A stretch of 64,000 bases of DNA from a virus. Positions 3,099 through 41,484 of the stretch are shown in pieces. The stretch spans positions 8,694-72,693 of the IMG/VR virus record IMGVR_UViG_3300028581_003594; one strand, 5' to 3'. The notes under the pieces are model-generated. The model did not search any database. It saw only the letters and a program-made list of their open reading frames with translations, and had not been told where the DNA came from. Within the stretch, counting starts at the first letter, position 1. Every line of letters begins with the position of its first letter. The position numbers and the translations under genes were made by a program.

Positions 3099-3102
3099 AG
3101 TC

Positions 3103-11736: not shown

Positions 11737-11755
11737 TCTATCTGGTAAAAATTGG

Positions 11756-11761
11756 TAAATA
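11756..11761 (+). promoter_or_regulatory. T4-like late promoter motif TAAATA
   Basis: Intergenic TAAATA 12 nt before ATG 11774. Confidence 0.5.
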
Positions 11762-11773
11762 CTATGATAAATT

Positions 11774-12061
11774 ATGTCCAGACCCAAGCCAACCGTGCTG
11801 TTAACAATCAGCAATAAAGACACTTACAAGCAAGAGGAAGTGCTTGCGGCTGAAGGCATTTGGGCAGTGTTTTACGATGGTAAACCCATCAATCTCAAAA
11901 GCTCCAGTTTGGTCAGCAACTATCCAGGCCCCAAGTACAAGAAGGTATCCTTCTCCAATCCAGGACACGCGGAGAACCTGGCCAAGAAGCTCAACACCAT
12001 GCACAAGACTGACAAGTTTGGCGTGTACCTATTAAAGACCGGCGAAAAATTCAAGAGATAA
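11774..12061 (+). CDS. conserved hypothetical phage protein
   Basis: 95 aa, MSRPKP...GPKYKKVSFSNPGHA. Confidence 0.7.
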   Translation: MSRPKPTVLLTISNKDTYKQEEVLAAEGIWAVFYDGKPINLKSSSLVSNYPGPKYKKVSFSNPGHAENLAKKLNTMHKTDKFGVYLLKTGEKFKR

Positions 12062-16058: not shown

Positions 16059-16377
16059 GCAGACCTGGGTGCAACTGACTTCGGAGTTCGTCAAGGAATG
16101 GCCCGAGGTTCTAGAGGGCATCAAGTACAGCAACATGCCCATAGGCTACGTCAAGTACTGCGACATCACCTTGAAGAACAACGTGACCATACACTATGAC
16201 GTGGAGAAGGAACTGCAGAACAAGAAATCCCAGATGGAAGTGGCCAACACGCTGAAGAGATATGTCAGCAACAACTACGCCAACGTCAAACACGTGGACC
16301 TAAAATTTGACATACCCAAGCTGAAAAGAGAGATGGAGTCAAAGACCAACAAGCTGTTGGACAAAACTTTTAAATGA
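16033..16377 (+). CDS. hypothetical protein
   Basis: 114-aa ORF coupled to its neighbours. Confidence 0.65.
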   Translation: MPRKLPRTKQTWVQLTSEFVKEWPEVLEGIKYSNMPIGYVKYCDITLKNNVTIHYDVEKELQNKKSQMEVANTLKRYVSNNYANVKHVDLKFDIPKLKREMESKTNKLLDKTFK

Positions 16378-17021
16378 ATGCGTTCTGCCAAAGAAAATTC
16401 TTAATACTGACGGCTCATCCAGATGACGCAGAAGCCGCCTGCGGCGGATTGATATCCAAAATATTAGCGGGGGGTGGAGCGGTGACCAATCTCATAATGG
16501 TCCGACCATCCAAGGAGATCAACAGCAAGAGGGACGAGACCATAGTGAGGTCAGAGTTATACAGGAGCCAGGGCGTATTGAAGCACACCGTTGAGTGTTA
16601 CCAAACCCCTCTGCACGAAGACGGCAGGCCAAACTTGGTGCTGTCCAACAATCTCATCACGGAAGTGGAGATGGTGGCCAAGGATTATGACGTGTTGATC
16701 ACGCATTGGCGAGAGGACACACATCAGGAGCATAGGGTATGCTATGAGTTGGGTCTCAGCATGTCCAGGAAGTCATACCAGGAATTTTGGTGCATGGACC
16801 AGGCCCCGTACAACCTGCGTTATGAAAATTTCAACGCAAATCTCTATGTTGACATAACAGATCATGTGCAACACAAGATCAGGGCGTTGGAGTGCTACAA
16901 ATCATATTTCACGCAAGTAGCAATAGAACAGATCATCAATTACAATCGACACAGAGGTTCTTTCCTCGGCGAGGGCAGGATTGCAGAAACATTCTCGGTG
17001 CAATATCAGAAAATCACATGA
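16374..17021 (+). CDS. PIG-L/LmbE-family N-acetylsugar deacetylase
   Basis: AHPDDAE..CGG and THQEH metal motifs. Confidence 0.85.
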   Translation: MNAFCQRKFLILTAHPDDAEAACGGLISKILAGGGAVTNLIMVRPSKEINSKRDETIVRSELYRSQGVLKHTVECYQTPLHEDGRPNLVLSNNLITEVEMVAKDYDVLITHWREDTHQEHRVCYELGLSMSRKSYQEFWCMDQAPYNLRYENFNANLYVDITDHVQHKIRALECYKSYFTQVAIEQIINYNRHRGSFLGEGRIAETFSVQYQKIT

Positions 17022-17989
17022 ACATATTGATACTGGGTGGACATGGTCTGATTGGTAGCCGCGTCAGCCAGCGACTGAAGAAAGAGGGACACACCGTGGG
17101 TGTGGTGGACTGCTACCATCAATACAACGCCTTCCCAGACTGGGAGTATTTTCCATTGCTGGAGCAGAGGAAAGTCATTGCCAATAACGATCGCACATTC
17201 ATGGGCAGGATCGAGGACAAGGCATTCATGGCCACCACATTTGCTGAATTCCAACCAGAATCGGTTATTCATTTGGGCACTTACCCCAACGCCAAGATGG
17301 TTCAGAACAACATAGACGATGCCACAGGCAACATGATCAATGCCACGGCGAATGTGCTGGACCTATGCGTCAAACACAAGGTGAGGAAAATTGTTTTCGC
17401 CAGCAGCAGCATGGTGTATGGTGATTTCAAGGAACAGATACCAGATGAGAAAGTGACGCCAAACCCCAACACATTGTATGGCTCGTACAAGTATCAGGGT
17501 GAGCTGATGTGCAAAATTTGGAGGAGGGCACATGGATTGAATTACGTGATAATGCGACCATCAGCTCTGTACGGCACTCCAGACATAATAGTGCGAGTAA
17601 TAAGCCAATTGGTAAAAAGTGCTTTCACCAAAAAGGAAATGACGGTGCAGGGTCCTGACAACAAATTGGATTTCTCACACGTGGAGGACGTGGCGGAATA
17701 TTTTGTCAGGGCCGCGTTGTCTGATGTCGTGGATGAAGTTTTCAATTGCACCAGGGGCAGGGGACGAAGGATAATCGATGCCGCGGAAATAGTGCAATCT
17801 CTTATTCCCGGGGTCAGGATCATCACCAAACCACATGACGAATTTTATCCCAACAGAGACACATTGAACAGCAACAAAGCCATAGCGCTTTTGAAATTCC
17901 AACCCATGATCGACATTGAGCAGGGCATACCAGAATATGTCAACTGGTTCTCCAAGCAAAAATTTTATAGGGACAATCTAAATTTTTAA
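17018..17989 (+). CDS. NAD-dependent nucleotide-sugar epimerase/dehydratase (SDR)
   Basis: GGHGLIG, ASSSMVYG, YGSYK and RPSALYG; start at MNILIL with ATGA overlap. Confidence 0.88.
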   Translation: MNILILGGHGLIGSRVSQRLKKEGHTVGVVDCYHQYNAFPDWEYFPLLEQRKVIANNDRTFMGRIEDKAFMATTFAEFQPESVIHLGTYPNAKMVQNNIDDATGNMINATANVLDLCVKHKVRKIVFASSSMVYGDFKEQIPDEKVTPNPNTLYGSYKYQGELMCKIWRRAHGLNYVIMRPSALYGTPDIIVRVISQLVKSAFTKKEMTVQGPDNKLDFSHVEDVAEYFVRAALSDVVDEVFNCTRGRGRRIIDAAEIVQSLIPGVRIITKPHDEFYPNRDTLNSNKAIALLKFQPMIDIEQGIPEYVNWFSKQKFYRDNLNF

Positions 17990-19314
17990 TAACTGGCCTC
18001 TGCGGGATATAATTTGAAGAATGTGTCCTTGGTGAACTTCCAAGAATAAGTCTCTTCTATCTTGGCAACATCGAAATTACAATCTTCCACAAATTTTTTA
18101 GCATCATGTGCTCCTCGTTTAAGCCATGTGTTGCCTGTAGACAACCATTTTTCAATCCTATATCCCGTTTCCACTGTGGGACGTTGTTTATTCCATAATA
18201 TTAATTTGCTGACTTCTCTAAAGGCATTTTTCCATGCTGTGTAGTTGTCTGGGCACAATAATGCTGTGTTTGCCACTATAGGTACGACTTCATGTTTGCT
18301 ATAAAGAGTGAAATCCAGACCTGGGGTATCTGGAGTGTCGAGGCATAAAGATCTGGAAAAAAGATTGATATTAAATGTACCATATTCCAATCCAAGTTCG
18401 GATAATCTTGCATGAAATATATAATGTCTTTTATTTTTTGCTCTATCCACAGTGTAATCAAACATAAAATTCTCGTCCACCTGGCTTTTTGCAAACACAG
18501 CATAAAAATATTCTTGGCTGGATTGTTCGGCCGCTTGTTTATATGCTGCTGTTCTTCCATCCACTCCTCGCACCCAATACAGTTTATTTTTTAAGTTGTT
18601 TTTTTGTAAATGTGTTTTTAACAATTCATAGTTTCCCTCTTCGAATGGTTCTCCGTTGGATATGAAGGCTATATCAAAACAATCTTTTTCCATGTTGTTC
18701 TGCAATCGATACAATAAGTGATAGTCATATATCTGCGTGTGTATCTTATCCACGGCTGCATTTGGTACATAGAATGTGGTGCCATCGATGTAAATTTTTA
18801 GATCTTCCCAATAAGAGGGATATATTTTTTTATCGTTTTCCTTTTCAAAATGTTTAACGTATCTGCAGGGAGGTCCCGGCGTCCTTGTCAGACAATCGAT
18901 GTTATTGCTTAGATCGTAGGGGGATTCTGCAATGTTATAATCATAGGATATATTTTTTACAGTATGGTAGTTGATATCTTTGTAGTCTCGTAGATGGTCT
19001 ATTTGTTGTTCTGTATACTTCTTTGGTATTAAGAATGTATCACCTTCTTTCTGTCCTTCTATGGACCAAACATGAATTTGTTCTGTTTGGAATTGTTCGG
19101 GAATAAACATAAAATCAAAATTTCGATAATCAATTAAACTGGAAAGCAACCAAAGATATCGTGTGCTGCATGATGAGATCTGGGATCGTATTATTTCGTG
19201 GTAGCTCTGCAGGAATGGCATGACTCTCACGTAAGGAAATACTTTTTTAATATTCTTTATATTTTGTTCACTTTTACTATTTTTAAAATCTATACAGATA
19301 CAATCAAAAGCCAC
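17986..19314 (-). CDS. two-domain glycosyltransferase-like protein (GT-A-like, DxD absent)
   Basis: C-terminal half is paralogous to 30791-31681 (FISNGEP..VRGVDG..AYKQAA..AWKNAFRE); AT-rich. Confidence 0.6.
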   Translation of the reverse strand: MAFDCICIDFKNSKSEQNIKNIKKVFPYVRVMPFLQSYHEIIRSQISSCSTRYLWLLSSLIDYRNFDFMFIPEQFQTEQIHVWSIEGQKEGDTFLIPKKYTEQQIDHLRDYKDINYHTVKNISYDYNIAESPYDLSNNIDCLTRTPGPPCRYVKHFEKENDKKIYPSYWEDLKIYIDGTTFYVPNAAVDKIHTQIYDYHLLYRLQNNMEKDCFDIAFISNGEPFEEGNYELLKTHLQKNNLKNKLYWVRGVDGRTAAYKQAAEQSSQEYFYAVFAKSQVDENFMFDYTVDRAKNKRHYIFHARLSELGLEYGTFNINLFSRSLCLDTPDTPGLDFTLYSKHEVVPIVANTALLCPDNYTAWKNAFREVSKLILWNKQRPTVETGYRIEKWLSTGNTWLKRGAHDAKKFVEDCNFDVAKIEETYSWKFTKDTFFKLYPAEASY

Positions 19315-20398
19315 AAAATTCTCCTATCATATCACAAACATATTTGATTTCATTCTTCCTTAGATGTGGATAGATTGGAAGACTCAAACATTCTTTTGAA
19401 ATTTTTTCAGCATTAGGGAAAGACTCTTTATTATTAAAATATTTTGTGTGTGGCAATATCGTGTTGTAATGTATTTGTGTTTCTATGCCTTTCTTATTAA
19501 GAAATTCTTTTAAATTATCTCTATCTTTACATAATATCACAAATTTGTGATTGGACCCAGTTGTGTTTGATTGTGTGTCAATAATTTTAACATTCAACAA
19601 TCTTTTTAAATGTTGACTGTATTGTTCTCTGACTTGTTGCCTCCTGTCTTGCAGAGTATTAAAATCCATCATCAACACATTCAATTGCGCAGCTTGACTT
19701 TCTGATATTACAGAATTATATCCATAATCTATGTCAGCACCATTCACTCCATGGTATCTTAGAGCTAGACATTTTTCCTCTATTTCTTTGTCATCGGTTA
19801 ATATCATACCACCACTGCCAAGAGCAGGCAAATTTTTTGTAGGAGAGAAACTTAACACACTGATATCTCCCAGACTGCCAGAATGTGACTTTTTATAAAC
19901 GGCTCCCAACGATTGAGCAGCGTCTTCCACTAACAATATTTTATTTTTACGACAATACTGTTTCAACCTATCATAGTCAGCTAGATTGCCATAAAGATTT
20001 ACATATACTAAAGCATCGGCTTTGATACCTTTGATATCACTAATCTGAGCATCTACTCCCACGTCTACGAATTTCATATGCGCACCGGTACGTTTTATTG
20101 CTGTGGCGGTGCTGAGGAAGGATAGTGCTGGACATATCACTGTTTTACCTGGTCCTATTCCATGCGATCGTAGTGCAAAATACAGTGCATCCGTGCAGCT
20201 CTGCACTCCTATCGCATGCTCCCGTCCCACATAATTTGCTACCAAATCTTCAAACATTCCTAATTCTGAATCTACTTTTTTTCTACCCATTAGCACGTTG
20301 CCTGTTCGCCAAACGTCTCGGGCAGCTTGATCTAGTTCTCCCTTGTAACAAGAATAGATTCTATCTAATCCGTTAAATTTTATTTTGTAACCACTCAT
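19304..20398 (-). CDS. DegT/DnrJ/EryC1/StrS PLP-dependent sugar aminotransferase
   Basis: SCTDAL, EDAAQSLG, SFSPTKNL..GSGGM and LSLPIYP. Confidence 0.9.
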   Translation of the reverse strand: MSGYKIKFNGLDRIYSCYKGELDQAARDVWRTGNVLMGRKKVDSELGMFEDLVANYVGREHAIGVQSCTDALYFALRSHGIGPGKTVICPALSFLSTATAIKRTGAHMKFVDVGVDAQISDIKGIKADALVYVNLYGNLADYDRLKQYCRKNKILLVEDAAQSLGAVYKKSHSGSLGDISVLSFSPTKNLPALGSGGMILTDDKEIEEKCLALRYHGVNGADIDYGYNSVISESQAAQLNVLMMDFNTLQDRRQQVREQYSQHLKRLLNVKIIDTQSNTTGSNHKFVILCKDRDNLKEFLNKKGIETQIHYNTILPHTKYFNNKESFPNAEKISKECLSLPIYPHLRKNEIKYVCDMIGEFCGF

Positions 20399-21314
20399 AA
20401 TATTTCTCGATGCCTTTATTAAAATCATACTTAGGCATATATCCTAAAAAACTTTTAGCCTTTGTCACATCCAGCGTACCTCTGGAAGGATACAATGAAT
20501 TTTTGCCCGTGTCTATAATTTTGCTTTTGCTTCCGGTCAGCTTGATAATTTTCTCTGCCGCTTCTCCTAAACTGCTTGCATTGCCTGCTGTGATATTGAA
20601 TGTTTGATTGGCAGCTTTTTCCGCCAAAGCACAACTGATGATGCCATCGGCTGCATCCTCTACATAGGTGAAATCGATCTTATTTTCATTGTCATGGACA
20701 TAGATATTCTCGTTTAACATTGCGGCTTTAAAAAATTTGCTTAAAACTCGATCTGGTATATCGCCTGCTCCATACACCCCACTGGGCCTGGCTATCACGT
20801 ACTCGAGACCAAATGCCCTGTTGAATTGCTGTGTTAGTCTCTCTCCTGACAATTTGGCCTCTCCATAGATGTTGACCGGAGCAGGCACGCTGTTCTCATC
20901 CGCTCCATCCTTGAAGTCCCCGTATACCATGCTGGAGGACACATAAACAAAGCGCTTGACTCCGTGTTCCACGCAGTCCTGCAACATGCCCGTGGTGCCC
21001 ACCACTATGTTCTCCACTCCCAGCTCTGGCTGCTCATTGACTATCTTGGCCCTGGGATAACTTGCCAGGTGTATCACTATGTCTTGTTTTCTCAACCACA
21101 CGCGATCCAGAGGCACGGTCACATCTCCTGATTTCTTTGTTACCTGATTCCAGTTCCTCTGACGCCATTGACAAAGACTATCTAAAGAATCCCTATCAAT
21201 CACATCATAGGTTTCTCCAGAATCTATTGTGGTAATTTTATGGCCCATGCGACATAATTTCTCCACAATCCAACTGCCAATGAATCCTTCTCCTCCGGTG
21301 ATTAAAATTTTCAT
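20373..21314 (-). CDS. NAD-dependent nucleotide-sugar epimerase/dehydratase (SDR)
   Basis: GGEGFIG, VSSSMVYG, YGEAK and RPSGVYG. Confidence 0.9.
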   Translation of the reverse strand: MKILITGGEGFIGSWIVEKLCRMGHKITTIDSGETYDVIDRDSLDSLCQWRQRNWNQVTKKSGDVTVPLDRVWLRKQDIVIHLASYPRAKIVNEQPELGVENIVVGTTGMLQDCVEHGVKRFVYVSSSMVYGDFKDGADENSVPAPVNIYGEAKLSGERLTQQFNRAFGLEYVIARPSGVYGAGDIPDRVLSKFFKAAMLNENIYVHDNENKIDFTYVEDAADGIISCALAEKAANQTFNITAGNASSLGEAAEKIIKLTGSKSKIIDTGKNSLYPSRGTLDVTKAKSFLGYMPKYDFNKGIEKYYEWLQNKI

Positions 21315-22801
21315 AGTACCCTTACATTATACTTGGTTTCAAAGCGTTCCGCATCCTTGATGTCATTTACCATGGGCTCGCCCTTGATATTGAGAGATGT
21401 GTTCAACAGCATGGGACAGCCGGTCTTTTGCTTCCATGTTTTTAACAGTTGGTAAAAACCTGGATTCTGTGTTTTATTCACTGTTTGCACACGGCTGGTG
21501 CCGTCATGATGCACAATGGCAGGAAAGTCTTTACCATGCTTACAACGGGCTATAAATTGCATATAAGGGGTGTTTACAACGCACTTAGGTACCTCAAAAT
21601 ACTCGTGTAGATCCTCCTCTAGTATGGCGGGTGCAAATGGTCGAAATTGCTGTCTCTTCTTGATGCGATTTACCAAATCTTTGATATCATCGCCTCTTGG
21701 ATCTGCCAGCAATGATCTATTACCAAGAGCCCTGGGTCCAAACTCTGCCCTGCCATTGGCCACGCCCACCATGCGATTGTTTTCCAATTCTTTCATGATG
21801 GCATCCACAGGGTATTCTCCTGCTATGTTATGTCCCAGGAAAGGATGACGCCAATTGATGTGTCTTCGTTCAGCTGCCGCGATACACCCTATGGAACTGC
21901 CAGCATCTCCTGGATTGGGCATGATCCATATGTTGTCAAACAATCCAAGATCGGCCAATCGACTGTTGGCCACACAATTTAGGGCCACCCCACCTCCATA
22001 CACCAGGTTTCTCTTGTTGCCGTATGGACTGACCGCTATCTGACCATTTGGTATGTACTGTCGAGCCTTGCGCCACAGTTTTTCTAATTCTTGTTCCGTA
22101 ACTTTTTGTATGCTGGCTGCCAGATCCATGGGATCAGCTTCGGGTAGCCAGTTGTGCAATCCTCTGTGTAGATTTTTCTTCAATGTGAAATCTCCATCCC
22201 TGTCCACGAGATCCTTGTAAACCTCTGCCACATGTCTGGGTTCTCCGTATGCTGCCATGCCCATTAGGATGTACTCTTCTTCGGCGGGTTTTAGTCCAAC
22301 TCGCTGTGTGAACGCTGAATACAGCACACCCAATGAATGAGGATATTTGATCCTGTAGCATAGTTCTAATCGCTTGCCCTGGGCTTGCCATATTGAGGTG
22401 GTATCCCATTCTCCTATGGCATCCACTGTCAACACCATGGCATCATAGAATGGCGATGTGAAAAACCCCGCAGCGGCGTGAGATTCATGGTGACCCACAT
22501 ACTGATCTATCTTTATTCCAAATGCATTTAGATAATTTTGTGGCATGTTAGTTCTGGAGAAAACTTCCGCCCATTGCCCAGCATAGGCCTGTCGAGTCTT
22601 TTTTAACAATGGTCGCTCATAATAGACCACTCGGTCCCATGGTCCGTATTCGCGAGCCTCGTTGACTATTTGCCAATTGAGATACGGATCGTTCTTGTCC
22701 TTGCTGTATCTCTCTGCGTGTGCCGCCCATAGGATCTCTCCATCTTCAACCACTGCCATGGCGGCGTCATGATTGAGGCAGTTGATTCCTAAAGTTCTCA
22801 T
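21311..22801 (-). CDS. NodU/CmcH/TobZ-family carbamoyltransferase
   Basis: HHESHA, DAIGE, GGVALNCVAN, EFGPRALGNRS, FRPFAP and LNTSLN. Confidence 0.93.
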   Translation of the reverse strand: MRTLGINCLNHDAAMAVVEDGEILWAAHAERYSKDKNDPYLNWQIVNEAREYGPWDRVVYYERPLLKKTRQAYAGQWAEVFSRTNMPQNYLNAFGIKIDQYVGHHESHAAAGFFTSPFYDAMVLTVDAIGEWDTTSIWQAQGKRLELCYRIKYPHSLGVLYSAFTQRVGLKPAEEEYILMGMAAYGEPRHVAEVYKDLVDRDGDFTLKKNLHRGLHNWLPEADPMDLAASIQKVTEQELEKLWRKARQYIPNGQIAVSPYGNKRNLVYGGGVALNCVANSRLADLGLFDNIWIMPNPGDAGSSIGCIAAAERRHINWRHPFLGHNIAGEYPVDAIMKELENNRMVGVANGRAEFGPRALGNRSLLADPRGDDIKDLVNRIKKRQQFRPFAPAILEEDLHEYFEVPKCVVNTPYMQFIARCKHGKDFPAIVHHDGTSRVQTVNKTQNPGFYQLLKTWKQKTGCPMLLNTSLNIKGEPMVNDIKDAERFETKYNVRVL

Positions 22802-22802
22802 T

Positions 22803-22907
22803 TTATTTGTAGATGAAAGGATCTTTCTTTTTCAGCTCTTTCAATCTCTTGCGATATTGCAACTCCAGTCGCACTTTGTTTATTAGGCCCTTGATCCATC
22901 CTATCAT
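22803..22907 (-). CDS. 34-aa small basic protein (not in the ORF track)
   Basis: MIGWIKGLINKVRLELQYRKRLKELKKKDPFIYK*; AAGGAG SD; ATGA overlap with the upstream stop; fills the gap exactly. Confidence 0.65.
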   Translation of the reverse strand: MIGWIKGLINKVRLELQYRKRLKELKKKDPFIYK

Positions 22908-26164: not shown

Positions 26165-27434
26165 ATAATTCGGCCAGTTCCGGAAAAGTTTCCAATATAT
26201 TCTCATTCCTGATGTCGTCTAATTTCTTCATTCCCGATTTGAACTCTTCTATTTGTTCAAACTTGTCTCTCCTCATCATGTAATCCAAGCCAGACTGGAA
26301 TCCTTTCGTGGCCCTGGTGAGATGATCTTGTGGTCTAAGCCATGCTATATGTGACTCATATTTTTCTTTTACCTTTTGTTTCATTGACTCAGGCAATAGA
26401 TCAATTCTTTGCCAGAAAGGAAATTGTAATAGATTAAAATTAAAATCTTGGGGTTTTATGTAGCCTTGTTCCGACCACGTTCTGTGGAAATCCACCACAT
26501 GCAGGGCATTGATCAATCCCACAGTAGCACTGATATAAAAATCCACCTTTGGACACATAGCTTGCATTCTTTTTCTATTTGATTCTATCTCTGTCCATAC
26601 AGTGCCTTTCCTCATGAATTCTGCTCTTGGTCCCATTGCATCAAGGCTAGCGCCCACAGAGACTGAATCAAACTTGTTCCATAGTTCTAACACATCCATG
26701 TCTTTGAAAGTTAATTTGCTAAAGTTAGTATTATAGATTAATCTCACGTGGTACAGCTTCCTGCGATCGAGTTCTTTTAAAATTTTATAGTGTTCTTCCA
26801 TTATGAGGGGTTCTCCTCCGGCGAAATAGAACTGCTCCACATGATCAAACTGCGTCAACATCTGCTCCCAGATGTCATCTGCTGTTCTGCCCACTTTCAT
26901 TATCTTGGCATGCCCTGGTGGTTTGCCAGTTAATTTTTTATGGTCCTCGTACCAATTGGATGAGAACCATGTGCCACAACTGCGACAGGCAAAGTTACAG
27001 AGATTGCTGAATCGTATATCCCAATACTTGATTACGAAATCAGCAGTGCCATCTGCTTGTGTGTTGTCGATCATGCCTATGTTGTGTCCAAAATGTTTGT
27101 TAGAACTTAATCTTAGGCTAAAAAATCCCGACTTCTCTTGGTCATAGCACTTGCCGCACTGCCGTGACTGTGTGTTTGACAACATGTTGAGACGCATCTC
27201 TCGCATATCATTGCCATTAAAAACTTCTGCCATAGAACTCTTGTTTAAATCTCCTACAGGGTATTGATCCAATCCAAAACAACATGGATAAGCTCTGCCA
27301 TCTGGAAAAGCATGTAGATGTAACCATGGCATCATGCAAAAAGTATCACTATCTAGCAGCAATTCTTTTTGCTTTGAGGTCATGTCTTTAATTTTTAATT
27401 TTTCGGGCTCTTTGGCCCCATACTCATAAGCCAC
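26151..27434 (-). CDS. radical SAM protein with N-terminal SPASM/Twitch-like domain
   Basis: CMMPW...PCC...CGKC; CNFACRSC; AGGEP. Confidence 0.88.
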   Translation of the reverse strand: MAYEYGAKEPEKLKIKDMTSKQKELLLDSDTFCMMPWLHLHAFPDGRAYPCCFGLDQYPVGDLNKSSMAEVFNGNDMREMRLNMLSNTQSRQCGKCYDQEKSGFFSLRLSSNKHFGHNIGMIDNTQADGTADFVIKYWDIRFSNLCNFACRSCGTWFSSNWYEDHKKLTGKPPGHAKIMKVGRTADDIWEQMLTQFDHVEQFYFAGGEPLIMEEHYKILKELDRRKLYHVRLIYNTNFSKLTFKDMDVLELWNKFDSVSVGASLDAMGPRAEFMRKGTVWTEIESNRKRMQAMCPKVDFYISATVGLINALHVVDFHRTWSEQGYIKPQDFNFNLLQFPFWQRIDLLPESMKQKVKEKYESHIAWLRPQDHLTRATKGFQSGLDYMMRRDKFEQIEEFKSGMKKLDDIRNENILETFPELAELYEKD

Positions 27435-28773
27435 GGTACCACTCTCCTATCCTTGCAAATGTTTTGGCAAAATCCTTGCCTCTTCTCTCATCGTATTGTT
27501 TATAGAAATTTTTAAAGTCCGACCGCAGTCTTGGTAAATCAAATGCCTCTGAATGTGGAGTTTTGACCACGTCCAGATAGTCTATCAGTCGCTGCACATG
27601 GTCCACTTCCATCTGTTCGCAGTGCGTTATATTTGCATCCAACCATCGGGATAGGTCATCACGGAATTCCAGCCTCAGGTGATCCGGCAACACCAGCGGA
27701 GATTGGAAGCTGGGGAATCTCAATATGTTGAGAGTGAAATTGACATTGACCCCATACACCCTCTTGGCATCCAATTTGTTCCTTATGATCACATCTAGGA
27801 ATCGAGGCAATGATTCTAGGCAAAGGGCATTGACTGTACACATGTTGTGCAGTCCTGCAGGTCGTATTTGATCTATGACATTCACAAAGTTCACATACCA
27901 ATTGGCATAATCCATTCCATCTCTGCTGTAATCTGAATGGGCATACGTGGATTCATTGGAAGTATAGATATGCAAATTTTTTATTCGTTTACACTTGTCT
28001 ACAAATTTTTCAAATAATTCTGCCTTGGGCACTAGGTTGGAGTTGATGGCCAATCGCATGTTGGGGTTGATACGTTCTCCCTGTGTTTCGAACCAATCCA
28101 ACAATCTCCACAGGGAAGGTGACATCATGGGCTCTCCACCCGTGATCCTCAATTCATCTAGTGTCTTGTGTAGATCTGTTTCCCACCATCGAAAGAATGC
28201 TTCCACATAGGGATTTTCTTCTGTGTCTTTGTACAATTGTGCACCATCATGAGCATGAGTGAAATGATTCCTGCCATCTGATATTAAATCCTTATAAGGA
28301 CCATGCTGTTTTATGTCTCTCGCCCAGGTGGTGCTGAACGCAGGGTTACAATAGGAACAGGCAAAATTACATGTTCTATCAAAGGCAATCTCCAGGGTTT
28401 TTAGATTTACATCTTCTGTGATGGGAGTACTGAATGCTCTTTCTAGATCCGCGTCTGGATAGATTTTACTTTTGTAAACCCTGTCACTCACGGCATCTCT
28501 GCCCATGTCCTCAATCTTCCAGCAGTATTCGCAACCAGCGGGGCGTTCGCCCGCTATCATCTTGGCGCGGTCCTGTTTCTTCTGCGGGGTGTTGTGCAAC
28601 AATCTGGGATTATCTCTTAATTTTGCCACATCCACTTGGTGAGCGGGCGGATGATGGCAGCTGGTGGTCATTCCAGAGCCCAGCCATATGGTGGCGTTGT
28701 ACCACTTGGCTCCACAGAAGCTGGGAGATAGCGAATCTAATATTTGTTTACGATATTCAAGATCTTTATTCAT
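27424..28773 (-). CDS. radical SAM protein with N-terminal Cys/His domain
   Basis: CGAKW...SCHHP...CEYC; CNFACSYC; TGGEP. Confidence 0.88.
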   Translation of the reverse strand: MNKDLEYRKQILDSLSPSFCGAKWYNATIWLGSGMTTSCHHPPAHQVDVAKLRDNPRLLHNTPQKKQDRAKMIAGERPAGCEYCWKIEDMGRDAVSDRVYKSKIYPDADLERAFSTPITEDVNLKTLEIAFDRTCNFACSYCNPAFSTTWARDIKQHGPYKDLISDGRNHFTHAHDGAQLYKDTEENPYVEAFFRWWETDLHKTLDELRITGGEPMMSPSLWRLLDWFETQGERINPNMRLAINSNLVPKAELFEKFVDKCKRIKNLHIYTSNESTYAHSDYSRDGMDYANWYVNFVNVIDQIRPAGLHNMCTVNALCLESLPRFLDVIIRNKLDAKRVYGVNVNFTLNILRFPSFQSPLVLPDHLRLEFRDDLSRWLDANITHCEQMEVDHVQRLIDYLDVVKTPHSEAFDLPRLRSDFKNFYKQYDERRGKDFAKTFARIGEWYRGL

Positions 28774-29407
28774 TGTTTTTTATTGCTGCGTAGACTTTGT
28801 CAGCCCAAAGTTTATTTTGTTCGGCGCTCATGTGATTGATTATACCTTTGCCCCACGGCATTGTTGCCCCTCTGCCAGGCAAGAAATTTAATTCATGGTT
28901 CAATGATAGAGCATACATGCTCTCATCAATGAATATTCCGCTGCTCAATTTGATTCCAGCGTCTTTTTTTGCCTGTTCAAATGGACGGAAGCTCCAGGTT
29001 TGTACAATTGTTTTATTTTTTATTTTAGATAATACGTCGTGGTCAAACCATTTCAGGGCATATTCGTAGGCCAACTCATCTCTGTCGTAGCTGTGCAGGT
29101 GTATGAAGTACTGTTCCAGGGCATCGTATATCTTAGGATTCACTCCGGGAACGGGCTGGGTATTGGCCGACAGTATCAGATCTGGATGATACAACCTATA
29201 AGGCTCTGTATAGCACAGCACGCAGGTGTCAGGCAGCTTATTTTCCTGGTTCAATTTATTGAATTTAAAAAAGGTAGTCCATATGCTGCGGCCGGGCTCG
29301 CCCATGTGTACTATCTTGGCTCCCAATCTATCTGCCAACAATGTGCACCAGCTTTCTTTTTCCTTGCCTGCGCAGAAACTGTCTCCAAAAAATCCTATTG
29401 TCCTCAT
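28766..29407 (-). CDS. SGNH/GDSL-like protein
   Basis: FFGDSFCAG (block I), GEPGRS, and C-terminal INHMS; start at MRTIGF. Confidence 0.6.
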   Translation of the reverse strand: MRTIGFFGDSFCAGKEKESWCTLLADRLGAKIVHMGEPGRSIWTTFFKFNKLNQENKLPDTCVLCYTEPYRLYHPDLILSANTQPVPGVNPKIYDALEQYFIHLHSYDRDELAYEYALKWFDHDVLSKIKNKTIVQTWSFRPFEQAKKDAGIKLSSGIFIDESMYALSLNHELNFLPGRGATMPWGKGIINHMSAEQNKLWADKVYAAIKNNE

Positions 29408-30798
29408 AAGCTCTTGCACTCCTGCCAAAATTCCTGCATCTCAGGAAATGTTTGCTCAAAACTTGTGCCACGTCTGCGATCGTGTTCTGCAAAAAATGCG
29501 TAAAAATTCTTTTTCTGCGCACTGTCTTTTTCCTGGTGCTTGCGCCAGTAAGCAAGATTGCGCTGCATCTTCTGTATCTCAAAGTCTTTGAACAACGAGA
29601 AATCCAATCCAGTTCCAGTCACTTGTTTGGGACCAATCTGCTCATGGTGATCCATCATGTATTTGATGTTGTCCTCATGTATGCGCTGATATGATTCGGG
29701 CAGCAGGGTTATCTGTTGCCATGCGGGCTGGCGCAGCAGGGGAATATCGAACCACACTCGCTGATAGGTTTTTGAATGCTCCGATCTCAACAGGCGTATG
29801 TGTTTGAGTAATCTGTTCAGTGAGGTCACACTTAAATTATTGTAGGTGATGATAAAAGTGATGGAATTGCGCACGGGTATCCTGTGCAGGAACTCATTGA
29901 CATTGTCCATGAATTGATTGTAGTTCAGTCCGTTCCTGATGTACTCTGCCTGTGCGCCATGGGCATCCACAGACACGAACTGCATGAAATGCTCCACTTT
30001 CTCATCCAGGCATATCCTTTTGACCTGATCAAAATACTTGTTTTTCAATTTGATGTCCGGAGGACACATGTTTGATGTAACATTTAGGTGCAGGTCTTTC
30101 TTGGGATGATCTATGATGTAGTCAAACACTCGATAGGTGTTGACATCCATCATGGGCTCGCCACCGGTCATGCGGAAGTGTTTTAAATTCTTATACAATT
30201 CCGGCCACCAGCGCCAGAATGCTTCCACGTAGGGATTGTTTTCTCTGTTGGGTATGGGCATCCTCCTGCCCGTGAAATGCTCGGGTGCGTTGTGCTCTGG
30301 CGCAGTGGGATACGCTCCATATATGTCTATCTCCTTGCCCCATGCAGTGGAAAATTGTGGTGAGCAATAGCTGCATTTGAAATTACAGGCATTGTTGAAG
30401 TTTACTTCCACATAGCGAGGCACATGTGTCCTGTCCAACGGATTGTCTCTGATCTTCTCAAAGTCCATCATGGCCCATGGCTCGCCGGAACGATAGTGGC
30501 GATCACTCATCTCGCCCGTGTCCTCCATCTTCCAGCAATAGGAACAGCCCGCGGGTCTTTCGCCTGCCAGCATCTGTTGCCTCTGCTTGATCTTTTCTTC
30601 TGTGTTGTGCAGTGCTGCTGGATTGTCTGCCAGGCCTGCAGCATCTATTTCGTGCAATGGTGGATGATAGCAAGAGTTCGTCAGTCCTGTGGGCAGATGC
30701 AGAGACACCTGGTTCCATTTGGCCAGGCACATGGTGGGGCTTATTTGTTCTAATTCTCTCTTTGCCTCATCCGCTGATGTTTTATAAACGCTACTCAC
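29404..30798 (-). CDS. radical SAM protein with N-terminal Cys/His domain
   Basis: CLAKW...SCYHP...CSYC; CNFKCSYC; TGGEP; probable GTG start at 30798. Confidence 0.88.
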   Translation of the reverse strand: MSSVYKTSADEAKRELEQISPTMCLAKWNQVSLHLPTGLTNSCYHPPLHEIDAAGLADNPAALHNTEEKIKQRQQMLAGERPAGCSYCWKMEDTGEMSDRHYRSGEPWAMMDFEKIRDNPLDRTHVPRYVEVNFNNACNFKCSYCSPQFSTAWGKEIDIYGAYPTAPEHNAPEHFTGRRMPIPNRENNPYVEAFWRWWPELYKNLKHFRMTGGEPMMDVNTYRVFDYIIDHPKKDLHLNVTSNMCPPDIKLKNKYFDQVKRICLDEKVEHFMQFVSVDAHGAQAEYIRNGLNYNQFMDNVNEFLHRIPVRNSITFIITYNNLSVTSLNRLLKHIRLLRSEHSKTYQRVWFDIPLLRQPAWQQITLLPESYQRIHEDNIKYMMDHHEQIGPKQVTGTGLDFSLFKDFEIQKMQRNLAYWRKHQEKDSAQKKNFYAFFAEHDRRRGTSFEQTFPEMQEFWQECKSL

Positions 30799-31681
30799 GA
30801 TCCTGCACTCCTTTGTTCCTGTAAGGTTGTTGACAAAACTTATAAAATTGGCTCTGTGCTGCATCAAAATCTGCCACGGGCAATGCCAATCTCTGTCGCA
30901 GACTGTTGCCATGGGCCGACATATCAGATTCTATATCATACATCATGTGAGAAAATTTGTCGCTCATGAATTCTAAATCTCTGACCAGTGTGACATCGTA
31001 GTTTGTATCCAGCGTGGCCATATAACAGCCACATCGGGCACCCAGCATGGCCCATCGACCATTCTCCACGTCAGCACCCACGCTCATCCATGTGACTAGA
31101 TTTCTAAGATTGGGCTGGGGGATCGTCTGCATGAAAAGGCTAGGATCTACCTTCTGTCCATTATCGAGACTCATTTTAACACCTTCTCTCCATCCTGCTA
31201 TGAAAGCCTGTTCAGGAGTATGATTGATATGTGTCGTGGAGTATACATTGTGCAGATTCTCATGTGGCACCGTCCAACAGAAATCTATCTTGGCTCGTTC
31301 TTCCACAGCATTTTCATGAGTTTTCATTTCCAAGCAAATCTTGCGAGGCCATCCCACAATACCACCATTGCCATATATCAATCCATTAATAATGTTTCTT
31401 GCTCTCCAACGATGCACAGCAAGAGGATTGGTCTTGCTCCAATCCAGCGTCTGTAATAGGAAAGCGGGATCTATTCTATTGTCCCCATCGATGCTGATAA
31501 AGAAATCTGTTTCTGCTCGTTCGGCGGCGGCCTTGTGTGCGTTGTCAAACCCCTTGACTCCATGCACTCGTTTGGCCCAGGGCACTATGTTCAATAGGTC
31601 AGCGTAGTTCTCATCAGCGTTGGGCTCTCGATAGCTAATAAAAACAAAATCTAGATCGGTTACTCGGACGGTGTTTGCCAT
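30791..31681 (-). CDS. GT-A-like glycosyltransferase
   Basis: VFISYREP, VHGVKG..AHKAAA, SIDGDN (DxD) and LIYGNGG. Confidence 0.7.
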   Translation of the reverse strand: MANTVRVTDLDFVFISYREPNADENYADLLNIVPWAKRVHGVKGFDNAHKAAAERAETDFFISIDGDNRIDPAFLLQTLDWSKTNPLAVHRWRARNIINGLIYGNGGIVGWPRKICLEMKTHENAVEERAKIDFCWTVPHENLHNVYSTTHINHTPEQAFIAGWREGVKMSLDNGQKVDPSLFMQTIPQPNLRNLVTWMSVGADVENGRWAMLGARCGCYMATLDTNYDVTLVRDLEFMSDKFSHMMYDIESDMSAHGNSLRQRLALPVADFDAAQSQFYKFCQQPYRNKGVQDRE

Positions 31682-32001
31682 GCGTGTCCTCCTTCTCCCG
31701 TTCCAGTGGGCCAATATGGATCTCCATTAGAAAAATGCAAGCCATCAGACGATGCCAACAGCACACTGTATTTCCGCTTTATCTCCGCGGGGGGCTTACG
31801 GATGATCTTGCCCTGCTCGTAGTAAAAATTTTGATGTCCTTGGCCCAGCAGCATGAGGTATGTTTGCTTGTCTACGCTTGTTGTGTCCGTGCCCTGTTGG
31901 TTGGCCAGGCACAGTATCTCATTGCCTTTGGTCCTGATGTAGTATTTTGGATCAAATTTCTTGGGCTTGAAATTCTTCAGCGAATCAAAAAGTTCTTGCA
32001 T
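31660..32001 (-). CDS. hypothetical protein
   Basis: 113-aa ORF in a tight operon. Confidence 0.6.
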   Translation of the reverse strand: MQELFDSLKNFKPKKFDPKYYIRTKGNEILCLANQQGTDTTSVDKQTYLMLLGQGHQNFYYEQGKIIRKPPAEIKRKYSVLLASSDGLHFSNGDPYWPTGTGEGGHAWQTPSE

Positions 32002-32788
32002 CTAACACCTCCGGTATGTTCTTGTCATGGTAGTGCCACACGCTGGACATCCTTCTTCCCCCCAGGTACAACCTGTCCCGCAGCCTGACGGGATAGAGAT
32101 AGTTGTTGCAGTCCTCGGTGGGCGAGCCGTTGATGGCTGACTTGCCATGCACGAACTTGAACCATTTGTAATCTATTAAATTTTGCTGCGTGGGTTCCAT
32201 GATCCTGTGGGCCAGGGCATACACCACGTCCGTGGTCGGGAACTTGTCATGGCAGTTCACGAGCATTTTTTCTTTGACCTGCTGCCAGTTGCTCGCTATG
32301 GCATCGCACAGCATGAAAAATTTCTGTGCCATTTTGCTTTTCCTGAAATATGTCAGCCCGTTGTATATGTTTGGCAGGTGATTCCTTGTAAAAAGTTTCC
32401 TGTATGTGCCGTCCACGATCTCCTGGTCACGATAATTCAGGCAATTGACGGAAAACACCATGTCACGCTGGCACAGGTGCTCCCACCACCAGTCGGTGTT
32501 GGCTGTCCACAGCATGTCAGACTCCAGCTTGATAGTGTGTACATAGGGTGACAGCGAGAACACCTGATGTTCATTGGCAAATTTTTGTTCGTGCTCCTGG
32601 CTGTGATCTCTCCGCAGCAGCCGGACCACGTCCACGTGCTCGCTGCTGAACATGGAATGCTCGTCCACCAGCACGCATATGCTGTTGTGCCTGTTGTGTC
32701 GCTTGATGGACCTGGCAAGTTCAATGCTGCACCTCACGTAATCAGTGGTGCTGTTGTTCTGGCAAACCCAAATGAATCCCCTAGACAT
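31985..32788 (-). CDS. nucleotide-diphospho-sugar transferase (GT-A fold)
   Basis: RGFIW..N..DYV..S..LA.SI, SPY..TIKLESD, YF.KS and TDVVYA. Confidence 0.7.
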   Translation of the reverse strand: MSRGFIWVCQNNSTTDYVRCSIELARSIKRHNRHNSICVLVDEHSMFSSEHVDVVRLLRRDHSQEHEQKFANEHQVFSLSPYVHTIKLESDMLWTANTDWWWEHLCQRDMVFSVNCLNYRDQEIVDGTYRKLFTRNHLPNIYNGLTYFRKSKMAQKFFMLCDAIASNWQQVKEKMLVNCHDKFPTTDVVYALAHRIMEPTQQNLIDYKWFKFVHGKSAINGSPTEDCNNYLYPVRLRDRLYLGGRRMSSVWHYHDKNIPEVLDARTF

Positions 32789-33536
32789 TGACAAATCCTT
32801 TGTTGAGCACATGCACGTCCTGTCCCTGTATGCTGTTGATGCTGTTGAGATGCCGGTAGCACAGGCCATCACCGTCATGGCTGATCACATCGCAGTCCTG
32901 TGGCAACGTGGCGATGGAATCCGGGATCACGTCATATGCGCCGAAGCCGTTGATCTGATTCAGTGCCATGGCGAATGCATAATCGTTCCTGAAATTTTTG
33001 TAGTCTATCCTGTAGAGGTTGCAGTAGTGGTTGTAATTTTGCTTGATCATCTTGACCAGGTCAAATATCCTGCGCACACGATCAGTCTTCCTGAAGATCA
33101 ACACCGTGGCCCAGACCAGGGGCAGCATGGACTTGCGCTCATAGGTCAGTGCCTGCCTGTAGGACACATCATGTGCGCGGTCATGTATGAGGAAGTCATG
33201 CGCTGTGCCACTGAGCCGCAGCAATTTGTCGGAGAAGCAAAGATAGTCCACGTCCAGCACAATGGTGGTGGCGTACGGCGAGTGGTCAAATGCCTGGCAG
33301 CGCTCGAGGTTGTGCCATGGCAGCCCCAGCTTGGTGTTGTTGCACTCGTTGTCCACAGTGATGAAGTCAATTTCTGGCCTGTCGACCCAGCGCTGCAATG
33401 TGTGTGCGTTGGTGACCATGGTGATGGGCAGTTCCAGGTGCTGCTTGACCAATGCCACGCTGGCGTTGGCCACCCTGTGGTAGGGCACCTGTTCCGTGTC
33501 AAAGCAATACATCAGCACGCCCCGTGTCATGTTCAC
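32781..33536 (-). CDS. nucleotide-diphospho-sugar transferase (GT-A fold), paralog of its neighbour
   Basis: RGVLMY, SPYATTIVLDVDY (DxD), FRNDYAF and HVLNK. Confidence 0.72.
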   Translation of the reverse strand: MNMTRGVLMYCFDTEQVPYHRVANASVALVKQHLELPITMVTNAHTLQRWVDRPEIDFITVDNECNNTKLGLPWHNLERCQAFDHSPYATTIVLDVDYLCFSDKLLRLSGTAHDFLIHDRAHDVSYRQALTYERKSMLPLVWATVLIFRKTDRVRRIFDLVKMIKQNYNHYCNLYRIDYKNFRNDYAFAMALNQINGFGAYDVIPDSIATLPQDCDVISHDGDGLCYRHLNSINSIQGQDVHVLNKGFVNV

Positions 33537-33850
33537 TCCTTCAGTGTTCGCAGCGATTGATAGGCCTGGTGATAGGTGTTGAGGGCCGCCTGCTGGCGCT
33601 CCACCAGCGCGGCTATGAATTGCTTGGGATCCTTGATCTCCACGGGATTGGAATTGGCGTCCAGCATGAAGAAGCTGTCGCGATGCTCCATCAGCATGGT
33701 GGCCGTGGCTATGGTGAGAGGGTCCGCGCGGAATATGTGGTCATTGTACACCGTGACCATCTCGCTGTCAGCCCTGGACAGTAGATTCTTCTTGGCCACT
33801 GCCCTGTCAAAGCTGAGATCGCTGTGTCGCTTGAGTTCATTGATATCCAT
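33533..33850 (-). CDS. hypothetical protein heading the glycosylation operon
   Basis: 105-aa ORF starting 6 nt after a TATAAT box. Confidence 0.7.
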   Translation of the reverse strand: MDINELKRHSDLSFDRAVAKKNLLSRADSEMVTVYNDHIFRADPLTIATATMLMEHRDSFFMLDANSNPVEIKDPKQFIAALVERQQAALNTYHQAYQSLRTLKE

Positions 33851-41478: not shown

Positions 41479-41484
41479 CCATAC

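Follow-up and report, generated by a model that had tools for sequence, protein, structure and literature searches.

A conserved block of radical SAM and putative glycan genes beside the tail fibres of a jumbo phage

Why would a phage carry five radical SAM enzymes, together with genes for handling sugars, next to the genes for its tail fibres? Here we analysed a stretch of 64,000 nucleotides (nt; the window) that spans positions 8,694 to 72,693 of IMG/VR record IMGVR_UViG_3300028581_003594. In it, a block of about twenty genes at 16374–33850 encodes the radical SAM enzymes along with glycosyltransferase (GT)-like proteins, nucleotide-sugar enzymes and tailoring enzymes. A reading made from the letters of the DNA (the sequence-only reading) had described the block as a soluble pathway for an amino-sugar glycan, most plausibly one for virion proteins and otherwise one for DNA or a small molecule. 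We conclude that the block probably builds and edits a glycan. More tentatively, we favour a late, fibre-linked operon that would encode a self-contained cytoplasmic amino-sugar glycan pathway with the phage’s own fibres as acceptor.

A compact block in the structural gene run

We classify the DNA as that of a phage, and as a jumbo myovirus of the Rak2/Atu_ph07 type. Its baseplate and giant virion genes show 36–38% identity to jumbo phages of the Rak2, Atu_ph07 and PA5oct type, and the wedge protein, of 1,159 residues, has counterparts at 36–38% identity in Atu_ph07, PA5oct, SCTP-2 and further jumbo phages of the Rak2 type. The source record is a 72.7-kb viral contig, estimated to be about 21% complete. 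Lake-water metagenomes contain the phage and marine data contain relatives (metagenome-assembled genomes (MAGs) TMED41, TMED56 and MED606, and Tara-derived proteins); no near-identical DNA was found among 50,697 phage records, and a scan of the window for tRNAs found none.

From 63872 down to 17986, nearly all genes lie on the minus strand, in a run that passes from the baseplate hub, a gp25-like protein and the wedge through a 4,291-residue virion protein and several fibre-like proteins to the glycan block. The block is co-directional with the baseplate, giant-protein and fibre genes. At 17986–17989 the block meets convergent plus-strand genes, among them those for a family B DNA polymerase and an exonuclease, a MoxR/VWA pair and genes of nucleotide metabolism.

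Both limits of the block, as first drawn, are gene ends (the start of the PIG-L gene at 16374 and that of U105 at 33850), and the near-total overlap or coupling of its genes holds: 14 of the 17 minus-strand junctions overlap (by 4 to 122 nt when counted from the longest open reading frames (ORFs)), one has a gap of 1 nt, and two have gaps of 51 and 102 nt. The 102-nt gap is itself a 34-codon ORF (P34, below), and the 51 nt before U105 are the sole real exception to the tight packing. The earlier claim that no membrane-bound enzyme is present also stood; the highest 19-residue hydropathy is below 1.5, no block enzyme has a transmembrane-like segment, and by this prediction the enzymes are soluble.

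Five radical SAM enzymes of one family

All five radical SAM enzymes that had been proposed (23706–30912) belong to NCBIfam NF033640 (N_Twi_rSAM), with scores of 286–411 bits against a cut-off of 170. A six-frame search of the contig for NF033640 returned the same five proteins:

23706–24878, minus strand: rSAM1, 376.2 bits; SPASM match at residues 11–75, before Radical_SAM at 115–263
24860–26206, minus strand: rSAM2, 308.7 bits
26151–27434, minus strand: rSAM3, 411.4 bits; the most conserved gene of the block
27424–28773, minus strand: rSAM4, second subtype, 286.6 bits
29404–30912, minus strand: rSAM5, second subtype, 326.3 bits, matched from residue 58; its true start may lie downstream of 30912

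With the family at large, the five share an N-terminal four-cysteine domain, the CxxxCxxC and GGEP motifs and a score above the curated cut-off. The corresponding invariant residues are C33, C52, C93 and C96, then C146, C150 and C153 (CxxxCxxC), then G206-G207-E208-P209 (GGEP), and in rSAM1–rSAM3 the Pfam SPASM match precedes the Radical_SAM match. This architecture undoes the analogy to the Twitch enzyme BtrN, one part of the soluble amino-sugar pathway that had been proposed; its other parts (solubility, adjacency to fibres and, through the bacterial loci described below, the glycan reading) stood. BtrN has its radical SAM core first and the twitch domain C-terminal to it; here the auxiliary domain is N-terminal, the proteins are members of NF033640, and no BtrN-type model is among their NCBIfam matches. 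An oxidase-like working of the BtrN/anSME type is possible for these enzymes. In open-access full text we found no paper on NF033640 that gives a reaction or substrate for the family.

An IMG/VR scan with rSAM3 recovered 57 viral loci at 72–92% identity, many of them cut by contig ends; per-gene counts among these loci, used below, are inflated by cross-matches between paralogues. More than 7,400 metagenome protein clusters also match rSAM3, and in lake and ocean metagenomes over 7,000 protein clusters correspond to each of the radical SAM and GT-like genes. The array comprises two subtypes, rSAM1–3 and rSAM4–5, and identity to rSAM3 is merely 20–29%. rSAM4 and rSAM5 are 51.6% and 35% identical to their partners in RsoM2USA (MG752970.1), a cultured jumbo phage of Ralstonia, compared with 31.5% for the cross pair; because each is closer to its RsoM2USA partner than to its own paralogues, the duplication is old. 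In three related loci (L042, at 11214–11891; L043; and L054), a gene for a plastoquinol-type alternative oxidase (Pfam AOX, E = 9e-79) lies between rSAM3 and rSAM2.

Bacterial loci with the same family

NF033640 is rare in bacteria: none of 14 control genomes scores above the cut-off; of 401 Bacteroidota genomes sampled, 4 do (centre genome counted), and of 401 Pseudomonadota genomes 3, one of which is a MAG with a mis-binned phage contig. The bacterial genes usually stand in tandem, in two to four copies, and in all five loci that we inspected glycan-type or SGNH/GDSL esterase genes lie near them (GDSL/SGNH in three of the five). The neighbours are:

L078: PhyH dioxygenases, B12-radical SAM proteins and a secreted Peptidase_S74 protein
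L079: a GT2–methyltransferase fusion and a GT-C-like protein
L080: a carbamoyltransferase, a polysaccharide deacetylase, a GT11-like protein, a methyltransferase and a B12-radical SAM protein
L081 (Pseudomonadota): WbsX, TylF-like and class I methyltransferases, RmlC, RmlD and a Wzt–radical SAM fusion
L082: GT2 and a short-chain dehydrogenase/reductase (SDR)

The fusion in L081 (8579–11143, minus strand) is a protein of 854 residues that joins ABC_tran, Wzt_C and an N-terminal-twitch radical SAM enzyme, and three more tandem copies follow it. The recurring trio of radical SAM, SGNH-type and carbamoyltransferase genes and the Wzt fusion speak most strongly for the view that NF033640 would act on glycans rather than peptides, a link made through gene neighbourhoods and thus by guilt by association. 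L081, with four tandem NF033640 genes, WbsX, RmlC, RmlD and methyltransferases, likens the phage block to O-antigen loci of the ABC-transporter type; the block differs from them in that it lacks a transporter, a polyprenol-linked initiating enzyme and any membrane protein.

The same contexts admit a second target. These soluble enzymes could act at the cytoplasmic face on lipid-linked O-antigen, lipopolysaccharide (LPS)-core or capsule intermediates of the host, which would block superinfection or prevent progeny from re-adsorbing to debris, and the link to fibres would then mark a shared ‘host recognition’ module. We regard such editing of the host envelope as possible, if on the unlikely side, and as backed about as well as a virion target. 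In its favour are the tandem NF033640 genes of an ABC-transporter-type O-antigen locus, one copy of them fused to Wzt, and the GT-C-like and polysaccharide deacetylase genes of other bacterial loci; assembly of ABC-type O antigens is cytoplasmic, so soluble enzymes suffice. The absence from the block of membrane components of the Gtr type argues the other way. Phage O-antigen glucosylation of that type combines a membrane flippase, a bactoprenol glucosyltransferase and a membrane serotype-specific GT, and Pfam and NCBIfam scans of the block, which has no hydrophobic segments, found none of these families (GtrA, GtrB and GtrC).

Two pairs of GT-like proteins

Four GT-like genes had been proposed, of which two are firm (GT_297 and GT_251) and two tentative (GT_307 and the C-terminal half of U442):

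31985–32788, minus strand: GT_297, GT8/glycogenin-like GT-A fold (AlphaFold2 (AF2) model and Foldseek); invariant E119-x-D121 instead of DxD
32781–33536, minus strand: GT_251, paralogue of GT_297 (hhalign 97%, E = 1.2e-10); invariant D95-x-D97
30791–31681, minus strand: GT_307, tentatively GT-A-like from weak Foldseek matches; invariant D76-G77-D78
17986–19314, minus strand: U442, N-terminal half of unknown type, C-terminal half a paralogue of the GT_307 domain (hhalign 99%, E = 1.7e-18)

Profile–profile comparison finds the GT_297/GT_251 and GT_307/U442 pairs unrelated by sequence. None of the four matches Pfam (including Glyco_transf_8, for GT_297 and GT_251) or NCBIfam, and profile searches against the PDB gave no meaningful match. 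Structure prediction, which had been suggested for each GT, gave a clear GT8-like fold for GT_297 and a weak one of GT-A/nucleotidyltransferase type for GT_307. The AF2 model of GT_297 (pLDDT 71) matches glycogenin-1 in Foldseek with E = 1.9e-8 and probability 1.0, has 415 matches at E ≤ 1e-3, and has its nearest relatives by fold in glycogenin and UGGT, protein-directed enzymes of GT8/GT24. On this model GT_297 and GT_251 have a glycogenin/LgtC-type GT-A fold with a DxD-type metal site, at the position of the DxD motif in GT8. The GT8 fold also suits a glycan of the host envelope.

For GT_307 (AF2 pLDDT 76.5), the best Foldseek match in the PDB has E = 1.1e-2, among GT-A transferases that include A64R of chlorovirus PBCV-1; VIA Z scores are 6–8, no higher than 8.0, and are shared with nucleotidyltransferases of the IspD/MobA type. 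Matches in BFVD are weak and mostly of GT-A types, one Atlas neighbour is named GT2-like, and the peptide S-glycosyltransferase SunS and a Che8 glycosyltransferase are among the weak structural matches. In 239 longer metagenomic proteins, helical repeats and then another C-terminal domain come after two tandem GT_307-type domains. In proteins P0241–P0360 (547–1,221 residues) the repeats are of about 20 residues (NxHSLFRLLG...LRKAV), and by eye the C-terminal domain is a candidate SAM methyltransferase-like domain; a phmmer search of one such protein (P0248) against the PDB was uninformative. Because these long proteins carry tandem GT_307-type domains, GT_307 is probably an enzyme module and not a structural protein.

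GT genes in a phage also bring to mind DNA hypermodification, in which the sugars would be placed on phage DNA bases. Phage GTs that glycosylate DNA are known (PMC12619734 and PMC7029224, in the text of each available to us), and with about 21% of the genome at hand a base hydroxymethylase could lie elsewhere. The block, however, stands in a late structural run apart from the replication genes, shows no GT-B DNA glucosyltransferase signature and has GT-like folds of GT-A type, and its radical SAM family has a polysaccharide context in bacteria. The window also holds a separate 7-deazaguanine-type set (GTP cyclohydrolase I, QueE-like and QueC-like), and the 72.7-kb contig, which covers about 21% of the genome, showed neither hydroxymethyl-pyrimidine synthesis nor a DNA glucosyltransferase. 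We consider this explanation very improbable, the least favoured of those weighed here.

Nucleotide-sugar and tailoring enzymes

Five further enzymes were found where they had been reported, all above their Pfam cut-offs:

16374–17021, plus strand: PIG-L/LmbE-family de-N-acetylase (PF02585, 47.5 bits against a cut-off of 28.2)
17018–17989, plus strand: SDR1, extended SDR of the nucleotide-sugar epimerase/dehydratase family (Pfam Epimerase, E = 8e-40); its ATG overlaps the PIG-L stop codon
19304–20428, minus strand: DegT/DnrJ/EryC1-family pyridoxal phosphate sugar aminotransferase (PF01041, E = 2.4e-82, 277.5 bits against 19.8)
20373–21314, minus strand: SDR2, extended SDR of the nucleotide-sugar epimerase/dehydratase family (Pfam Epimerase, E = 1.4e-40)
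21311–22801, minus strand: NodU/CmcH-type O-carbamoyltransferase (Carbam_trans_C 188.2 bits, Carbam_trans_N 157.8 bits; phrog_1601, E = 4e-95)

No block enzyme reaches the cut-off of the NCBIfam equivalogs PseC, LegB/LegC, GalE, RmlB, BshB1 or NodU. DegT scores 174.8 bits against the 423.5 of PseC, 158.8 against the 420 of LegC and 109 against the 434.85 of WecE; PIG-L scores 43.5 against the 182.5 of BshB1, and the carbamoyltransferase 151.5 against the 1,000 of NodU. SDR2 falls below the RmlB and LegB cut-offs and SDR1 reaches no equivalog cut-off. The exact sugar therefore cannot be named. PIG-L, at the convergent end, is a variable member (10 of the 57 loci), and together with SDR1, DegT and SDR2 it is not constant among related loci. 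The carbamoyltransferase is 45.8% identical to that of RsoM2USA and has homologues in 144 phage records, mostly of cyanophages. The G+C content of U442 (0.357) and DegT (0.361), at 17986–20428, is low compared with 0.40–0.58 for the rest of the block, and may reflect a more recent acquisition or a different origin.

Taken as a set, DegT, PIG-L, GT, carbamoyltransferase and auxiliary-cluster radical SAM genes recall the biosynthesis of butirosin, neomycin and tobramycin, and the block might make a small molecule, aminoglycoside-like or another amino-sugar metabolite. The classes shared with BtrN, BtrS/BtrR, BtrD and TobZ are broad ones (auxiliary-cluster radical SAM, DegT, PIG-L and carbamoyltransferase). 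A GFO/IDH/MocA oxidoreductase occurs in some relatives, and in phage S-SCSM2R a trio of DegT-like, radical SAM and amidinotransferase genes has been called ‘antibiotic synthesis genes’ in PMC12801897, a paper on a cyanomyovirus. Against this origin, the twitch domain here is N-terminal where that of the butirosin enzyme is C-terminal, no match is at the equivalog level, the family’s bacterial context is one of polysaccharides, and the locus lies inside the virion run; the window showed neither a cyclitol synthase nor a resistance gene or exporter. A small-molecule product thus appears improbable to us.

SGNH-like proteins and the P34 peptide

Between the carbamoyltransferase and rSAM1, and again between rSAM4 and rSAM5, lie smaller genes:

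22803–22907, minus strand: P34, a gene for a 34-residue basic peptide (MIGWIKGLINKVRLELQYRKRLKELKKKDPFIYK), the ORF in the 102-nt gap, missed by the sequence-only reading
22904–23713, minus strand: SGNH1, a DUF6071-related protein with SGNH-like motifs (hhalign 98.7% to DUF6071 proteins of RsoM2USA)
28766–29407, minus strand: SGNH2, a small protein whose N-terminal part has a GDS motif, in a variable slot; invariant G15-D16-S17 and N198-H199

Two SGNH-like proteins had been named, a tentative assignment for both. SGNH1 has invariant S11, G51/G53, N54, H241, D244 and H247, which gives Ser-Gly-Asn-His in canonical order; it is related to DUF6071, and its Atlas neighbours are DUF6071/GDSL clusters; none of 15 family members matched DUF6071 or GDSL in Pfam. 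SGNH2 shows only the GDS and NH motifs, is unrelated to SGNH1/DUF6071 by hhalign, is present in 14 of the 57 loci and may give way to an unrelated protein some 246 residues long. Neither protein matches Pfam, NCBIfam or a PDB sequence, and profile searches of both against the PDB gave no meaningful match.

The start of P34 overlaps the stop codon of SGNH1 by 4 nt and its own stop codon lies 1 nt before the ATG of the carbamoyltransferase. P34 is present in all 50 related loci that show SGNH1. Its 17 C-terminal residues (YRKRLKELKKKDPFIYK) are almost invariant and are encoded with two to six synonymous forms per codon; across 36 distinct DNA sequences, identity over these codons is 0.951 at positions 1 and 2 and 0.571 at position 3. 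Because third positions vary while residues are nearly invariant, P34 is evidently a real protein-coding gene. In most relatives it adjoins SGNH1, and accessory genes (434–2,377 nt) are inserted between it and the carbamoyltransferase. These encode FkbM and class I methyltransferases, APS-kinase-like, cupin, cytidylyltransferase-like and GFO/IDH/MocA proteins; thioredoxin-reductase-like proteins, a plastoquinol-type alternative oxidase, an Asp/Asn hydroxylase and 2-oxoglutarate (2OG) oxygenases; and radical SAM proteins of the B12 and C-terminal-SPASM types. Two loci (L023, 14447–14632; L024, 15290–15421) have a second, diverged copy of P34, ending ...KKKDPYLYR, beside the canonical one.

So conserved a peptide could itself be the substrate or primer, in a pathway like that of peptides made on the ribosome and modified after translation (RiPPs): a tyrosine of P34 would be glycosylated by the glycogenin-like GT, or its aromatic-X-X motifs cross-linked by the radical SAM enzymes, or both, to yield a modified glycopeptide. 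Glycogenin, to which the GT_297 fold is nearest, glucosylates a tyrosine; SunS is among the weak GT_307 matches; radical SAM enzymes with SPASM or twitch domains are mostly peptide or protein maturases, and the weak NCBIfam cross-matches of the five are to such families; and P34 is under strong protein-level selection and translationally coupled within the block. We nevertheless judge a peptide-primed pathway unlikely. Cys, Ser and Thr are absent from P34, the radical SAM family stands in polysaccharide loci in bacteria, and Pfam and NCBIfam scans found no RiPP recognition element, protease or exporter in the block. A pattern search, which a diverged peptide would escape, found no P34-like peptide in RsoM2USA, in Vibrio phage K566 or in six bacterial loci with the same radical SAM family (L064 and L078–L082). 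Being basic and amphipathic, such a peptide might just as well serve as a subunit of an enzyme or as a tether to the membrane. Complex prediction for the carbamoyltransferase with P34 (median 0.31, against a mark of 0.32 and 0.00 for controls) speaks neither way.

Fibre neighbours and conservation

The block directly follows Ser/Thr-rich virion genes, as had been noted: Ser and Thr make up 27% of U325, 23.5% of TF413 and 20% of TF500. The genes at this end, and one small protein inside the GT-like group, are:

31660–32001, minus strand: U113, a small protein with no family match, poorly conserved (median identity 30%)
33533–33850, minus strand: U105, a small glycine-free protein with no family match, always between the fibre-like gene and GT_251; found in 52 of the 57 loci, with a weak match to ORF354 of RsoM2USA
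33902–34879, minus strand: U325, fibre-like, a candidate acceptor outside the block as first drawn; 27% Ser+Thr, no Cys, fibre-type N-terminal motif
34881–36506, minus strand: TF541, a tail-fibre protein (PHROG tail-fibre and virion-protein matches) at the head of the conserved order

Of the 54 loci in which the GT pair is seen, 50 keep the order TF541–U325–GT_251–GT_297–rSAM5, and 44 of the 50 with SGNH1 keep rSAM2–rSAM1–SGNH1–carbamoyltransferase. Synteny with tail genes across relatives, which had been proposed as a check, is thus present in these loci and in part in RsoM2USA. Median identity is 75% for rSAM3, 71% for rSAM5 and 69% for the carbamoyltransferase, compared with 61% for TF541, 46% for U325 and 35% for TF500; the block enzymes are more conserved than the fibres. 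A strongly conserved core in fixed order next to faster-evolving fibres is not what would be expected of a host-specific set for editing receptors.

Contigs from RNA libraries (two lake metatranscriptome runs) that belong to a relative at 90–95% identity span TF541 through GT_307, and 17.0–30.2 kb is sparsely covered; such contigs cannot rank genes, and the sparse cover of the radical SAM half says nothing of lower expression. They record presence in RNA libraries and are a weak hint of expression.

The single-protein radical SAM scan of genome contigs brought up one Flavobacteriales contig and, in MAGs, three contigs of mis-binned phage DNA. The module occurs at 78–81% identity on contigs L061, L062 and L063, in the MAGs Betaproteobacteria TMED41, Verrucomicrobia TMED56 and Rickettsiales MED606, which are probably mis-binned phage DNA.

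Among the 50,697 phage records, homologues of GT_307, GT_297 and rSAM5 with good coverage were found only in RsoM2USA. The genes there run from the hub through gp25, wedge, giant protein, sheath, SDR epimerase and tube to the fibre-like ORF355, and on through a U105-like gene, GT_251, GT_297, ORF351, GT_307 and rSAM5 to a second GT_307; the homologues at this tail-run site are 28–40% identical to the block proteins. ORF355 fuses the conserved fibre N-terminal domain to a U325-type C-terminal part, and ORF349, the rSAM5 homologue (35%), adjoins GT-like genes. The shared genes lie in the tail run at ORFs 348–358 (GT_251, GT_297, both copies of GT_307, rSAM5, U105 and SDR) and, elsewhere, at ORFs 199–203, where the rSAM4 homologue (51.6%) stands beside the carbamoyltransferase and three DUF6071 genes. 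RsoM2USA differs in having the module at two sites about 95 kb apart, two radical SAM genes where the present block has five, and no P34 by pattern search. The available text of the RsoM2USA paper annotates all of these homologues as hypothetical and contains no occurrence of radical SAM (PMC8504454).

A place within the late structural run (in RsoM2USA, between sheath, tube and fibre genes) would be late for superinfection exclusion, another point against editing of the host envelope. That explanation draws support in turn from K566, in which a PagP-like gene lies beside four NF033640-type radical SAM genes, between which stand two Pfam GT8 genes and one that is GT4-like. It is also the reading given, in the text of PMC7029224 seen here, to cassettes of GT (mainly GT8), LPS and radical SAM genes beside the fibres of pelagimyophages and cyanomyophages.

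A possible pathway and its acceptor

We tentatively favour the virion fibres as acceptor, because the block lies in the tail gene run in two distant lineages, because its enzymes are more conserved than the fibres, and because GT_297 has a glycogenin/UGGT-like fold with the Ser/Thr-rich U325 immediately upstream. From enzyme families and context, we infer the following steps. The two SDRs and DegT would remodel a nucleotide sugar to an amino or deoxyamino sugar, which the GT_251/GT_297 and GT_307/U442 pairs would transfer to the acceptor, taken to be U325, TF541 and neighbouring fibre proteins. On the assembled glycoside, PIG-L would remove N-acetyl groups, the carbamoyltransferase would O-carbamoylate, and the SGNH/DUF6071 proteins would add or remove esters. 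The five radical SAM paralogues would each abstract a hydrogen atom at a different sugar position and so bring about oxidation, epimerization or dehydration. In relatives, methyltransferase-, kinase-, cupin- and oxygenase-type genes in the slot between P34 and the carbamoyltransferase would vary the decoration. The particular proposal that fibres or P34 are glycosylated in the cytoplasm, and that the attached sugars are then rewritten by the five radical SAM enzymes, is more doubtful.

Several points weigh against fibres as the acceptor of such a pathway, or against parts of it. The case for a virion glycan is made from genes and context, and the bacterial O-antigen-type context suits a lipid-linked host glycan as well as a protein. 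In bacteria, GT8 enzymes are mostly LPS-core enzymes, according to the available text of PMC7029224. The K566 cluster adjoins a PagP-like lipid A gene and none of its 25 ORFs matches a structural PHROG. Because, among the 50,697 phage records, homologues of GT_307 and GT_297 were found only in RsoM2USA, the module is accessory and not needed for virion assembly in the clade. The motifs of SDR1 and SDR2 are presumably those of epimerases rather than 4,6-dehydratases, and because both look epimerase-type, the source of a keto-sugar for DegT is not evident. The assignments of GT_307, from its model, and of the SGNH proteins, from their motifs, are weak. Promoter-like sites (36, compared with 32.3 ± 6.5 expected) and terminator-like sites (20, compared with 16.7 ± 5.1) are at chance level.

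Other features of the window

Several genes outside the block are listed here in their own right:

1920–4095, plus strand: a further sugar pair, 13 kb from the block, of a weak GT-B-like protein (Glyco_trans_1_2, E = 0.003, below the cut-off) and a third SDR epimerase (E = 6e-54)
4095–4847, 5159–6202, 6192–6659, 6679–7320, 8796–9656 and 40650–41459, plus strand: queuosine-type genes, namely GTP cyclohydrolase I, a GMP-reductase/IMPDH-family protein, a phosphoribosyltransferase, a Vut_1/YhhQ-like transporter, a QueE-like radical SAM protein and a weak QueC-like protein
12547–14894, plus strand: a MoxR-like AAA ATPase, then a DUF2201 metallopeptidase/VWA protein that PHROGs labels ‘HNH endonuclease’, a label with no Pfam support
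40650–42066, plus strand: the QueC-like gene and U193, an island of low G+C (0.40) inside the minus-strand run of fibre genes
45057–57932, minus strand: the 4,291-residue virion protein (phrog_10938, 1,209 bits), between the baseplate wedge and the fibre genes

The 7-deazaguanine/queuosine-type set suggests a separate pathway for DNA or tRNA base modification.

Relation to known systems and significance

That glycan and radical SAM genes occur in the fibre module of aquatic myoviruses is already in print. In pelagimyophages and cyanomyophages, a host recognition cluster carries GTs (GT8 being the commonest), LPS-type genes and radical SAM cassettes in or beside the tail-fibre module (Zaragoza-Solas et al. 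2020, PMC7029224, in the text available). That cluster is hypervariable and read as modifying the host O-chain, whereas the present block is conserved, fixed in order and carried by a jumbo phage of the Rak2/Atu_ph07 type; the available description does not name five NF033640 paralogues, DUF6071/SGNH-like proteins, two orphan GT-A pairs or P34. Open-access texts, without their supplements, yielded no fixed array of five NF033640 paralogues, no link of DUF6071/SGNH and carbamoyltransferase genes across phages and bacteria, no Wzt–radical SAM fusion, no two orphan GT-A pairs and no P34.

Cytoplasmic decoration of a virus’s own structural proteins by virus-encoded, soluble GT-A enzymes and amino-sugar pathways has precedents in chlorovirus PBCV-1 (A64R), in the fibrils of Mimivirus and in the capsid and tail of Che8-type mycobacteriophages; virion glycosylation of this kind was reportedly described by Freeman et al. 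in 2023. We know of no radical SAM enzymes in these systems. The structural matches of GT_307 to A64R and the Che8 GT are weak (E about 1e-2, Z about 7), and here the evidence is of genes.

The block is not a rarity: it is abundant in lake and ocean metagenomes, with its order kept in 50 of 54 loci. It ties the uncharacterized family NF033640 to glycans in phages and in bacterial O-antigen loci, and makes directly testable the question of what tandem twitch radical SAM enzymes do to sugars. Radical editing of attached sugars, if true, would be the first reaction for NF033640 and would diversify glycans in a new way, one that bacterial O-antigen loci share. A product on the fibres would be the first case of an elaborate virion glycan among phages that infect Gram-negative hosts and would bear on host recognition and on the evasion of enzymes and immunity, and a product on the host surface would be a widespread phage tool for rewriting cell envelopes. 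With either target, the block would be a source of new carbohydrate-modifying enzymes.

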